Origin: Escherichia coli O157:H7
GTDB lineage: Bacteria; Pseudomonadota; Gammaproteobacteria; Enterobacterales; Enterobacteriaceae
NCBI RefSeq assembly: GCF_013167455.1
Contig: NZ_CP038328.1
Strand: one strand, 5' to 3'
DNA length: 64,000 bases
Shown: piece by piece, positions 37,201-40,200 of the stretch
How positions within the stretch are numbered: position 1 is the first letter of the stretch
Layout: each line of letters begins with the position of its first letter
Position numbers: made by a program

Positions 37201-40200
37201 CACCACTTTGTCTAATTCGTCAGATTCTGACCAGACGGTTCAGGCTGTACGCTTACATTGATACTGACAATTCAACGTCCGTCATCGCTCCCCCAATGTG
37301 TTGAGGTTAGGTAGAAATGATAACAAATACACCGCTCCTGCCCCTGTAACCTCCCCTTTTTTATACGCTCATTTTTGCGCACTTTTTCGATCATCACGTA
37401 TCGGTTTCGTTTTGCGCTTCCTGTTGCGTTTCGTTTTTGAGAAAAATGCGCAGTTTTTTGCGCACTTTTTGAGGTGTCTATCCCCCTGCAAGCCGCGTCA
37501 TATCTGGCTTTGCTCTGTTTGTCTGTGTGATCGATTTTGTGATCAGTTTTATGATCGATTTGCGCACTTTTTTGCGCATTTTTTCAGGGATTTTTCACCC
37601 CATCGAAGAGGCTTCTAAGGGGCTGTGAAGTGGGTAGCATTTTGCTGTGATGGAAGGACTACCGCTACTGTCTGATAATGGTGACGGAGGCCGCTATGTT
37701 CGGCTCTGATTGCAGCCTGCCGTATATTCACCAATTTACCTGGCTGTTATTTCCATAACCCGTAATGTCGCCGATCCCGTCTGATTCCCATATCGTCAAC
37801 AGTCTTATTTACAGCATCCTGAAGTTCGCAAGGCATATTTCCCGCCGTCTGGCTATATGTTCTCGCTGCGGATCGGTGTGGGCCTCTTTCATTACGTCAA
37901 GCCAACGAGCGGCGGCTCTTCGCCATAGTCCCTGAGATTCCAGTTGTTCGGCTTTTTTATCAGTTATTGTGTCCATATTAACTTCCGTCTCTTCGCCCTG
38001 TTTCACCCCTGTACTTCGTGCCCCGTAAAGGATCTTCTTTTTTCTGGTCAATCCCCATATCTTTAAGCGTTCTGGTCGCTGCTGCCCTGACGGCGCATAC
38101 ATGCCCCCACTCTGTTGTTTTTGGTCTGGTGGCTTTTGCCGTGCATTGCGCCCTTCGTTGGGTAATATAGTGCCTCTCTTCATCAGTTTTTGCCTGTCTG
38201 AACAATTCTCCCCAGCGTTCAGCAGCACGCCGCCAGAGGCCGCTATTCTCCAGCGCTTCAGCCTTGTCATCACGTATCATCTGTACCCCGCCGATTCTGT
38301 CCTTTCAAAATTTGTCTTATGGCTTATTGTATGAGGGATTCATCCTACAACAAGAAAGGTCACTATGAGACTGACGCAATACAAAAAAGAGATCCTCAGT
38401 TACTTCACTCCCGACAATCTGGCGTGGGTTACTGCCGAAATTGGCAGTCCGCCGTTTGATGTCTCCGGTGTGGCTTACCTGCTGCATGGTATGGATTCAT
38501 TCAACAGCCGGTATCAGATCGAATCAACAAGGCGCACGCTGGAAGCTATGGTGCGTGATGGTCTTCTTGAGCGGATTAATGTGTATGAGCGTCGTGAGGG
38601 CGCTGGTGATGGTGTTCGTCGAAAGGTGGCGCGTTATGGCCTGCCTGGTCATTCTGTTGTGGTGCGTGACGGTGAGGGCCGGAACGGTGCAATTGACGGC
38701 GAATGTATACGCATCAATGCTACAGATGTGGTGCTGGTGGAGGGGCAATAAAAAACCCTGAAAGATTTCTCCGGGTGCTCCAGTTGCACGTGGCAGAAAT
38801 CCTTCAGGGTCAGCCGTAACGGGCCTCTGTACAGAGGGCTCCAGTTGCCCAGAGATGAGCACCCGCTACAGCCTGTTGTGATAAGCCGCTTTACAGTGAG
38901 CTCCAGTTGCTCAAAGAGGCGCGTTTTTATCACAACCTGACCGCGATAACCCGCTGTACAGAGGGCTTCAATTGCCCAAAGAGGCGCATTCTTATCGCGG
39001 CATGACGAAATCACCGTGATGTTTTCGTCGTTCACTCATCCCGATGTGTGGGAGATGCACCGGAATGAGTGCCGAAAAGCCGCTGGCTGGCTTCATGCAG
39101 TCGGACTCAGTTGCCCGGGGCGAACACCATCAACGGCCTTTTGGTGGTGATTATAGCGAATCGCGATAATTGAGCAAATACGGTGATGAGATGCGTATCA
39201 CGGTAGCGCTAAATCGTCGCCTGCATCACTGAAGCTGTAATTTCTCCATTCATCCTGCGGATTAATCCCCATCTCTTTCAGCGTTCTGTCTGCGGCCTTT
39301 TTCACATCGCCAAAGGTGACGAACTGCTCAGGCATACGACGGGTTTTACTGATGCATATCGCCCGACGTCTGGCAGCTTCCTCGCGTTCACTGTCCGTTT
39401 CTGCGTGAAGAAGAACCTCAGCCCATCGGGTCGCCGCACGTCGCCATAAACCGCGCTCCTCAAGTTTCTGTGCCACGCTGTCCGTCATCACTGGCTTTAC
39501 CTCCGGCTGATTACTGCTGACTGTTTTTCTGCTTCATCTGCTCCAGTCTCCGCTTCAGTAGTTCGCTGGCTACTGATTTATCTTCTTCCGTGACTTCACC
39601 GCAAGGTTGCCCGTTCAGTCCATACCGTGCGCCGCCAGCGACAATGGCTTTCAGGTATCGCGTCGTGTGGATGTATGAGGTTAATGCGCCACGTAATACG
39701 CCATGACCAATCGCCAGTTCCCGCGCCTTCGCGTCCTGCAACATATCGTGTATCACGCCAGCCTTAAGGGGTTTTATATTCTCTGCCCCAAACAGTTCAG
39801 GCCAGTACTCAGCCAGTCGGTTTATCCTCCTGCGGTTTTTTCGCTGCCGCTTTGTCATGTGCTGCCACGGTATGCGCCGTGATGGTTTACGTGTGGTCTG
39901 GTCCTGTTGTGTGGTCTGCTGGTTCATGTTGTGCTCCTGTCATTCAGAACGGAATATCGTCAGAGAACGGGTCATCACCTCCCGCTGGTGGCTGATTCCC
40001 CCGTGTTCCGGTCTGTCGTTTTGCTCTTTCCAGTGCTTCGGTCGCCTTCCCCTGTTGCCCCCGCTTCCCGCCAGGACGCGCCGAACGGGCACTGATTACG
40101 CTGTCAGCGATAACCTGCCAGCCCTGCCGTATTTCTCCGTTCTGTCCGGTCCACTGACTGATCTGCATGTTACCCGCCACGCTGATAAGGTCGCCTTTTT

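Follow-up and report, generated by a model that had tools for sequence, protein, structure and literature searches.

The stretch of DNA considered here, referred to below as the window, comprises 64,000 nucleotides of the chromosome of Escherichia coli O157:H7 (RefSeq assembly GCF_013167455.1, contig NZ_CP038328.1), and it contains, in the gap between dinD and yicC, an integrated phage satellite of about 18.5 kb (a length that includes copies of the insertion sequences IS66 and IS2). The subject of this work is one small gene of that satellite, which encodes a stand-alone protein with a FinO/ProQ domain, together with the RNAs that such a protein might bind, chief among them a candidate structured RNA lying just beyond the next gene downstream. 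Coordinates are collected in Table 1.

Read along the - strand, the island begins with an integrase gene, a hypothetical gene, a gene for an AlpA-like helix-turn-helix regulator and an AntA/B antirepressor gene, after which a non-coding stretch (the site of C4 and IsrK RNAs) leads to an icd-like open reading frame (ORF) and three small ORFs. These are followed by a P4-alpha-type primase gene, an AT-rich spacer containing iterons, an ORF of 149 amino acids of unknown function, and then the genes for a single-stranded-DNA-binding protein (SSB), the FinO-domain protein and a PerC-family regulator; finally there come a structured non-coding stretch of ~450 nt, a convergent ORF of 128 amino acids, two further PerC genes, and cargo, which has been broken up by IS66 and IS2 and contains a YeeE/YedE transporter gene and a Q-type antiterminator gene. 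The FinO gene is the second-to-last gene of a tightly packed, rightward operon (icd-like gene, small ORFs, primase, SSB, FinO, PerC), with gaps of 16 nt to the SSB gene upstream and 22 nt to perC downstream, and with good ribosome-binding sites. The part of the window from 37200 to 46100 is 100% identical to O157:H7 and other Shiga toxin-producing E. coli (STEC) genomes, and at least 80% of it is present in 79 of 5,426 complete genomes; the same dinD-yicC site is occupied in O145 and in ABU83972.

The FinO-domain protein

That the ORF encodes a FinO-fold protein with a basic N-terminal extension, as the initial annotation had proposed, is confirmed. With E=9.9e-26 the Pfam ProQ/FINO model PF04352 aligns to residues 31-136, and as this corresponds to model positions 4-108 of 109 the whole domain is covered. 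The NCBIfam models for ProQ (NF003434; E=3.5e-16, 59.8 bits against a cut-off of 127, over profile positions 4-116 of 205 only) and for FinO (NF010317; E=4.9e-15, 55.8 bits against a cut-off of 136) are also matched, with scores so far under these curated equivalog or subfamily cut-offs that the protein is neither ProQ proper nor FinO proper. The domain assignment itself was already known from RefSeq, where the identical protein WP_001076063.1 is labelled “ProQ/FINO family protein”; it is the clade that is uncharacterised, within a well-known family. In a phmmer search against Protein Data Bank (PDB) sequences the best matches were the N-terminal domain of ProQ (5nb9, 1e-12), RocC (7rgu/7rgt, 3e-12), FinO (1dvo, 5e-10) and NMB1681 (2e-6), and identity to ProQ, RocC, FinO and FopA is roughly equal, at 27-36%. 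Among 1.84 billion cluster representatives there were 1,508 matches at E<=1e-3, while at E<=1e-30 the protein's own cluster alone remained, implying that it forms a distinct clade. Pairwise dN/dS values (ratios of nonsynonymous to synonymous substitution rates) of 0.22-0.37 place the gene under purifying selection.

An AlphaFold2 model, for which the input alignment consisted of 80 diverse homologues, has a mean pLDDT (predicted local distance difference test score) of 90.5 and a pTM (predicted template modelling score) of 0.77, with low confidence only at residues 1-20, a basic tail that is probably disordered. The remainder comprises a basic helix (residues 26-41) and the FinO core (about 43-137), in which helices 58-68, 75-86, 89-97 and 114-137 accompany a beta-hairpin formed by strands 100-102 and 108-111. 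When this model was compared with the PDB using Foldseek, the significant matches were exclusively FinO-domain structures and the best 27 were all of that class, including RocC (template modelling score 0.83, root-mean-square deviation 2.4 Å, 35-36% identity), FinO (1dvo, root-mean-square deviation 1.8 Å) and NMB1681. The arginine- and lysine-rich nature of the N-terminal region, also remarked on originally, is evident from the presence of 12 K/R against 2 D/E in residues 1-42 (the full protein has a pI of 10.4); the most conserved N-terminal part across the clade is the motif TKRQRKNRRR-NRL, which forms the basic helix.

In the alignment of 80 homologues the sole invariant columns are Y91 and R101, with G57 nearly invariant, and in the phmmer alignment G57, R79, Y91 and R101 correspond to G52, R75, Y87 and R97 of RocC; the equivalents of ProQ Y70 and R80 are likewise kept. 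In the crystal structure of RocC with RocR these four RocC residues grip the 3'-terminal nucleotide and tail of the intrinsic terminator, and the 2'/3'-OH of RNA is what characterised FinO domains recognise (PMC9674577). Judged from these alignments, the pocket for the 3' nucleotide of RNA is intact in the satellite protein. RocC of Legionella is thus its best structural match and shares its four residues for terminator 3' ends; it differs in having a long C-terminal region, in controlling competence genes and in its unrelated genomic context.

A partner RNA within, or antisense to, the FinO ORF was ruled out, as there is no excess synonymous-site conservation anywhere in it (identical-codon fraction 0.34-0.70), and an opposite-strand hairpin at 39555-39576, which sits in the variable C-terminal coding part, was dismissed as a partner RNA.

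Distribution of the gene

Using blastn, a member of the clade was found in 273 of the 5,426 complete E. coli genomes, amounting to 303 copies, all chromosomal and 0 on plasmids. Among 72,556 plasmids the best true match has 37% identity (one higher match being a mis-filed chromosome), with plasmid FinO at 28-30%, and 50,697 phage records contain no close homologue, the best being those of Sodalis phiSG1 (43%) and Cronobacter JK004 (32%); IMG/VR yielded three related loci only. A distant homologue (43% identity) was also seen at L012 9001-9435, in a myovirus-like contig beside genes for an HNH endonuclease and for tail sheath and tube, so that FinO-domain genes occur in bona fide phage genomes too.

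The related islands that were read (given L numbers here) come from E. coli O145, O104:H4, ABU83972, SCU-171 and others, from Salmonella enterica and Citrobacter braakii, and in one case from Logan (an unannotated public sequencing run). In these the FinO gene always lies 3' of the replicase gene, whether or not an SSB gene is present, and of the 12 islands whose upstream context is complete 11 have perC directly after it. The replicase beside the same FinO clade, on the other hand, is of three unrelated types, namely a D5_N/P4-type primase, a DUF927 protein or an AAA_25 helicase. Particularly instructive is the island of strain CFT073 (L018, CFT073 1377930-1388654), which occupies the pepT/roxA-phoQ site, the location given in the literature for EcCICFT073/O-island 51. 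Its backbone is 86% identical over 3.5 kb to that of a FinO-carrying island, and the two differ by a clean ~450-bp segment holding the FinO ORF alone; in CFT073 the ssb stop is followed after 10 nt by the perC start, and there is no FinO gene. Given this absence, and the three unrelated replicases, the FinO gene counts as a facultative single-gene cassette, placed between ssb and perC, and not as fixed replication machinery. Its original placement in a replication module therefore holds as to position, directly after the primase, origin and SSB, but not as to function within a constant set of genes. Cassette status would also explain why no mention of a FinO/ProQ gene was found in those papers on E. 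coli satellites of this kind that could be searched.

The CFT073 satellite also carries genes for a major capsid protein and for head decoration, and it has no C4 or IsrK RNA; a YlcI/YnfO gene occupies their place, as it does in other islands that lack C4.

A hairpin array downstream of perC

Repeats at 38769-39000 had been named in the initial annotation as one place where a cognate RNA might lie, and they are in fact hairpin modules of a structured element that is supported by covariation and ends in a strong terminator. The element, which is previously undescribed and gave no match to Rfam at E<=1, reads as a candidate ~400-nt RNA that would be transcribed either from its own promoter or through read-through from perC. 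Its modules are 62-65 nt long, and each would fold by itself into a long outer stem (the sequences of which are unrelated between modules), an internal loop and an apical hairpin with the motif GNGC-AAYUGRA-GCNC, whose variable pair covaries (G-C, A-U or U-A). An RNAalifold consensus of seven orthologous copies contains seven hairpins. In the seven-copy alignment 98.2% of paired cells hold standard pairs, compared with 35-46% in controls where the pairing partners were slid along the sequence; pairs changed on both sides number 10, against 0-2 in the same controls, and the covariation score is 0.123, against 0.004-0.047. In a separate shuffle control, 10 compensatory pairs were reached in 1 of 500 shuffles. 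One-sided variation, with pairing retained via G-U on the operon-sense strand only, is seen in another 21 pairs, and of 18 satellite modules 14 fold more stably on the sense strand. The entire region folds with z=-5.7, the opposite strand nearly as well (z=-5.1).

A promoter-like site just after the perC stop could drive the candidate RNA independently of the operon; its -35 element matches the consensus at 3 of 6 positions, and an automated promoter scan did not list it. At the other end module 4 is a terminator that, as read from its sequence, closes both the finO-perC transcript and the candidate RNA, and it is kept, with compensatory changes, in L002, L005, L006 and L026-L029. Three other identities for the repeats were ruled out: they are not the replication origin, which is the TGTTCACC iteron field listed in Table 1; they are not a lambda-type cos site, the island being without cosN; and they are not coding, since a - strand ORF of 128 amino acids runs across the terminator and the array of L006 lacks 127 nt, a deletion that is not a multiple of three and so breaks the frame.

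The array is closely linked to one branch of the FinO clade, clade A, to which the gene in the window belongs. Conservation of the stretch between the perC stop and the convergent ORF extends to each clade-A island examined, all nine clade-A FinO loci inspected (window/L001, L002, L005, L006, L026-L029) have the array, and array and clade-A gene are present in 112 and 115 genomes, respectively. In clades B and C (L007-L011, L015, L016) perC is followed by a simple terminator, and the apical motif is missing. The convergent ORF of 128 amino acids, for which no Pfam, NCBIfam, PHROG or PDB match was found, always accompanies the array, and its product could bind the array or its DNA.

Likeness to a gene of Shiga toxin phages

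Module 1 (38942-39001, 61 nt, GCCGCGATAA...TTATCGCGG) shares 88.5% identity with a segment within the Shiga toxin 2 (Stx2) prophage of EDL933 (L021 9001-9061), and its counterpart in the L002 island is 98% identical to the Stx-phage segment. A single copy of this segment is present in each of 183 phage records, all of them Stx-converting or related short-tailed Sepvirinae phages, among them 933W, VT2-Sakai, phi24B, phage 86 and Ss-VASD (the phage loci read being L022-L025), and the orientation of the match is identical in every listed record. Part of the array query is matched in 437 E. coli genomes, of which 112 hold the whole array and most others the phage-type segment only. The apical motif is confined to clade-A islands and phages.

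In the phages the segment lies within an ORF of 8.4 kb encoding an LPD5/LPD38 protein, the last late gene, at the point where a nearly invariant part of that gene meets a variable part; relative to the operon-sense strand of the satellite it is antisense to the gene in 6 of 6 annotated records inspected. In phage Ss-VASD the outer stem has been swapped for a different yet complementary sequence (ACCCUGA.../...UCAGGGU), which implies that selection acts on the hairpin of the phage as well; the phage copies show no strand bias in folding. Satellite module 3 is closest to the Ss-VASD allele. Islands of another FinO clade, L015 (10034-10097) and L016 (10031-10094), contain downstream of perC a fragment of 64 nt, likewise antisense, that is 89% identical to the LPD38 gene at a point 37 nt from the hairpin; taken with the clade-A module, pieces of one short phage region are thus present in two satellite lineages. 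As far as can be read from such homology, it hints at Stx phages as helpers for the island.

The island as a phage satellite

The element is a Gram-negative satellite of the phage-inducible chromosomal island (PICI) type, resident in STEC; the “integrative element” of the initial annotation is thus indeed an integrated mobile element, of a more specific kind than that term conveys. It has an integrase, AlpA and a primase with an adjacent iteron origin, no phage structural or lysis genes, and its own attachment site, islands of this kind being about 10-18 kb in size. Its origin field contains the octamer TGTTCACC, which we take to be the iteron bound by the P4 alpha protein. The published layout of Gram-negative PICIs includes AlpA, a primase with an iteron origin behind it, and PerC-like genes (PMC6092414; PMC11773190), and the field at 40850-41120 agrees with the iteron/AT-rich organisation of E. 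coli PICI origins (PMC6092414). The likeness to EcCICFT073, EcCIEDL933/O-island 51 and EcCIMP1 extends to the layout int-alpA-(ant)-icd-DUF4222-primase-ori-ssb-perC-cargo, to the iteron origin and PerC-like genes, and to the defence cargo of relatives; the difference is that the CFT073 island goes directly from ssb to perC. PerC proteins of related PICIs have been reported to activate, repress or leave unaffected the expression of the enterocyte effacement locus, LEE (PMC11773190).

Neither a lambda-type cosN nor any recognisable packaging-hijack gene (rpp, terS, capsid) was found in the island. As regards the ORFs of 149 and 128 amino acids, neither matches any solved structure, and there is no detectable Rpp homologue, assuming that the RppC structure (PMC6739421) is in the copy of the PDB searched; an identity as Rpp was accordingly set aside for these neighbouring ORFs (the 128-residue one having no Pfam match either), and an identity as RgdR was ruled out, RgdR being an unrelated protein of 99 amino acids. 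Because of the IS66 and IS2 insertions the copy of the island in the window may be partly decayed.

In L006 (518-585) and L007 (1657-1724) the space from integrase to alpA contains the Rfam int-alpA RNA motif (RF02996), which was not detected in the island of the window.

Table 1. Features of the satellite and its surroundings in the window. L numbers denote related loci; empty cells, nothing reported.
Feature	Position	Strand	Basis and remarks
FinO/ProQ-domain gene	39511..39927	-	138 aa; ATG start; AGGAG Shine-Dalgarno 6 nt 5' of start
Candidate structured non-coding RNA, about 400 nt	38746..39145	-	Seven hairpins; apical motif in the five that are modules
Promoter-like site	39150..39178	-	TTGCTC-17 nt-TATAAT; read by eye; invariant in window, L005, L006
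Predicted intrinsic terminator (hairpin module 4)	38752..38811	-	~17-bp stem and U6; folding free energy -39.3 kcal/mol, z=-4.8
ORF of 128 aa, function unassigned	38365..38751	+	Convergent on array terminator; conserved in L005, L026-L029
PerC/ANR-family small regulator gene	39198..39488	-	RefSeq; PHROG 994 and transcriptional-activator PHROGs
SSB gene	39944..40393	-	TIGR00621 66 bits (cut-off 54); PHROG 44
Replication origin	40850..41120	.	~12 copies of TGTTCACC/GGTGAACA, both orientations; AT-rich spacer right after primase gene
P4-alpha-type primase/replicase gene, 608 aa	41127..42953	-	TIGR01613 E=8e-27; PHROG 864 E=4e-188
icd-like small gene	43757..43927	-	RefSeq; PHROGs 1743 and 1426; first ORF of operon after C4
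C4 antisense RNA (P1/P7 immI type)	43982..44069	-	Rfam RF01695 73.8 bits (gathering 45); directly 5' of icd-like gene
IsrK-family RNA	44096..44172	-	Rfam RF01394 52.1 bits (gathering 50); own intrinsic terminator GACGCGCCAGCGUC and U9
AlpA-like helix-turn-helix regulator/excisionase gene	45810..46025	-	PHROG 66; PF05930 Phage_AlpA at homologous position in related islands
Tyrosine integrase gene	47059..48321	-	Island end beside yicC; coordinates carried over from RefSeq table of identical island L001, offset +17199
Three PerC/ANR-family paralogues	37809-38280 and 39198-39488		The second range is the perC gene of the operon
IS2 and IS66 copies	31475-37164		Transposase genes frameshifted or interrupted; cut into cargo end of island
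Q-family antiterminator gene	32862-33254		Between IS copies
YeeE/YedE transporter gene	33566-34702		Between IS copies

Possible roles of the protein

The best overall explanation, adopted here tentatively and with rather less than even confidence, is that the protein is an RNA chaperone belonging to the satellite operon, with the adjacent array as its ligand. It would be made once the operon is switched on, which by analogy with other E. coli PICIs would follow induction of a helper phage and act through AlpA (in this particular island a block on icd by C4 RNA would need to be relieved as well). From what is established for the family, it would be expected to bind the base and U-tail of intrinsic-terminator hairpins, to protect the RNA concerned, and to speed the pairing of complementary stem-loops. 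Modules of the array are complementary to what would be a structured hairpin in the mRNA of the LPD5/LPD38 virion gene of 933W/Sp5-type Stx phages, and the protein might then promote kissing-loop pairing of satellite RNA with helper-phage mRNA, much as in FinP/traJ; a design of stem-loops with 7-nt loops, fully complementary to a hairpin in a helper late mRNA, would resemble both FinP/traJ and Inc/repZ. As to the separate parts of this account, the ~400-nt array RNA is, on sequence grounds, the most likely ligand in this island lineage, but that identification taken alone is speculative, and it is fairly unlikely that the whole amounts to a two-part RNA weapon or sensor directed against the helper, in which an array with at least two modules (1 and 3) resembling different phage-hairpin alleles would be served by a dedicated FinO chaperone encoded two genes upstream.

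Among the closest precedents is FinO itself with FinP and traJ in F-like plasmids, which shares the fold, a basic N-terminal helix before the core, residence on a mobile element, and possibly a partner made of stem-loops complementary to stem-loops of a target mRNA; it differs in that identity is 27-30% and that the island is a chromosomal satellite without finP, traJ or tra genes. That the FinO gene keeps its place in islands of E. coli, Salmonella and Citrobacter alike speaks for a chaperone of the satellite operon with the array as ligand. There are, however, several points that weigh against it. The array accompanies FinO clade A only and so, if it is the ligand, is not a partner for the whole family; its co-occurrence with clade A may be mere linkage among closely related islands; among the modules, 1 and 3 alone resemble known phage alleles, the collections containing nothing close to modules 0, 2 and 4 from a phage; the -35 element of the putative promoter is weak; and covarying hairpins would also be compatible with a role as single-stranded DNA.

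Of the alternatives the strongest, unlikely though it is in itself, is that the protein is a satellite-borne minimal ProQ with no dedicated partner in cis, which would bind many terminator-ended RNAs of host and helper and so compete with or supplement chromosomal ProQ. The cassette moves as a bare ORF of ~450 bp with nothing co-inserted, and the candidate partners discussed here are not common to all clades, both of which would be natural on such a view, as would the finding that the best sequence match is to the N-terminal domain of ProQ (~34% identity). Minimal FinO-domain proteins such as NMB1681 are, moreover, global binders (PMC9674577). Compared with ProQ the satellite protein lacks the linker and C-terminal Tudor-like domain (138 against 232 amino acids), has a basic N-terminal extension of its own and is horizontally mobile, and those members of the family on mobile elements that have been studied (FinO, FopA, RocC) have one or few ligands; a minimal ProQ would also leave the tight linkage of clade A to the array unexplained.

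It is quite unlikely that the protein is instead a chaperone of the C4 and IsrK immunity RNAs, stabilising the IsrK-like RNA or speeding the pairing of C4 at the icd ribosome-binding site (or both), and so exerting feedback on its own operon. These RNAs head the operon that contains the FinO gene. The IsrK-like RNA, which has a canonical terminator with a U9 tail, contains C4 targets of a1/b1 type, AUUGGCCU and GUUAGAGG, while targets of a2/b2 type, AUUGGCCU and GUCAGAGGA, overlap the icd Shine-Dalgarno sequence (43935-43975); as read from the sequence, C4 has in its two single-stranded parts the complements of both pairs, and GU(U/C)AGAGG repeats are found both upstream and at the icd Shine-Dalgarno. 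On this evidence 43935-44185 on the - strand is a complete arrangement like immI of phage P1, heading a replication operon instead of an antirepressor gene, and C4 would by analogy block translation of icd and, by polarity, that of the downstream operon, finO included. With P1/P7 immI (c4, icd, ant) and with IsrK-anrP-antQ of Gifsy-1 the island shares C4 and IsrK matches above threshold, the a/b target repeats and icd-like ORF in P1 order, and a Q-type antiterminator; it differs in that its antirepressor gene lies upstream of C4, and in that icd is followed by replication genes, FinO and PerC. ProQ binds prophage small RNAs (sRNAs), and IsrK of Salmonella is among the ProQ-associated sRNAs (PMC5391140), making it plausible that a FinO-domain protein binds an IsrK-like RNA.

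As obligatory partners of the FinO protein these RNAs were nevertheless ruled out, since C4 or IsrK is present in just 6 of the 12 FinO-carrying islands with complete upstream regions. The Salmonella islands L009 and L010 have an identical FinO protein and different copy numbers of C4/IsrK, while the O145 island (L005), at the same chromosomal site and with a FinO gene 93% identical, has neither. In P1, moreover, the mature form of C4 arises by processing and lacks a terminator tail. The non-coding stretch 44070-44400, which had been put forward as a second site for a partner RNA, does contain a plausible candidate in the IsrK-family RNA (C4 abuts it, just outside), but not one that all FinO-carrying islands share.

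Copy-number control after the fashion of FopA, or of PcnR from IncI2, in which the protein would help an antisense RNA to pair with replicase mRNA, is considered very unlikely. The FinO gene does come just after the primase, origin and ssb, and a terminator-like hairpin (TACTGGCAGTTAAGCCAGTA and T6) at 43039-43058 on the + strand (to 43066 with its tail) faces the primase ribosome-binding site from the opposite strand, which recalls the action of FopA on Inc/repZ (PMC9977716). FopA, from the IncI plasmid pCol1B9, is likewise small, has a FinO domain and a positively charged N-terminal region, and is encoded on a mobile element near replication genes; identity to it, however, is 33% over 86 core residues only, the N-terminal regions are unrelated, so that the satellite protein falls outside the FopA clade, and the island has no replicon of Inc/repZ type, its replicase partner varying between islands. 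A role in copy number is further at odds with the three unrelated replicases found with the same FinO clade, with an overlap between DUF4222 and the replicase start that, in most such islands, leaves an antisense RNA no leader to target, with the near-isogenic CFT073 replicon, which works without a FinO gene (for its replication see PMC6092414), and with the lack of excess synonymous conservation within the FinO gene. The 43039-43058 hairpin itself was set aside as a replication-control RNA, there being no convincing promoter for it and the region being absent from most FinO islands.

Least probable of all, and by a long way improbable, is that the array, and possibly the protein too, acts on DNA, the array mimicking a single-stranded or cruciform cis site of Stx phages (for packaging, replication or recombination) that the FinO-like protein would bind: satellites do copy helper packaging sites (PMC6739421), the FinO gene adjoins ssb, the two strands of the array fold almost equally and the phage copies have no strand bias, but against this stand the promoter-like site and U-tailed terminator, the G-U pairs and more stable folds of the sense strand described above, the mid-gene position of the phage site in the last late gene, a long way from the terminase genes, and the recognition of RNA hydroxyl groups by FinO domains of known kind.

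Significance

FinO-domain proteins form a major class of bacterial RNA chaperones beside Hfq and CsrA, and those mobile-element members that have been studied each revealed a compact and tractable antisense circuit (FinO-FinP/traJ, FopA-Inc/repZ, RocC-RocR). Phage satellites bearing the present clade are found in at least 5% of complete E. coli genomes, with O157, O145, O111 and O103 STEC among them, and in Salmonella and Citrobacter as well. Although the protein finding is modest by itself, interest is added by the PICI setting, by the clean presence/absence polymorphism between near-isogenic islands, and by two concrete candidate RNAs, one of them undescribed. RNA-level control in PICIs is almost unexplored, and in the literature found no master repressor is described for those of Gram-negative bacteria. 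The array candidate points to Shiga toxin phages as helper or target; if the proposed role is true, it would be the first case of chaperone-assisted antisense RNA interference by a PICI with its helper phage, would tie a satellite directly to Shiga toxin phage biology and, should the Stx-phage link hold, would bear on how satellites modulate the production and spread of these phages.

Cargo of related islands

In several related islands the cargo is defence-like (L007 13286-15242, L006 10137-12365, L011 14184-15963 and L009/L010 11982-12639), the kinds encountered being an AAA ATPase with a DUF4435 protein, a type II restriction-modification pair, GmrSD and HEPN proteins, and TumE/HVO_A0114 proteins; the AAA ATPase and DUF4435 pair is presumably PARIS-like.

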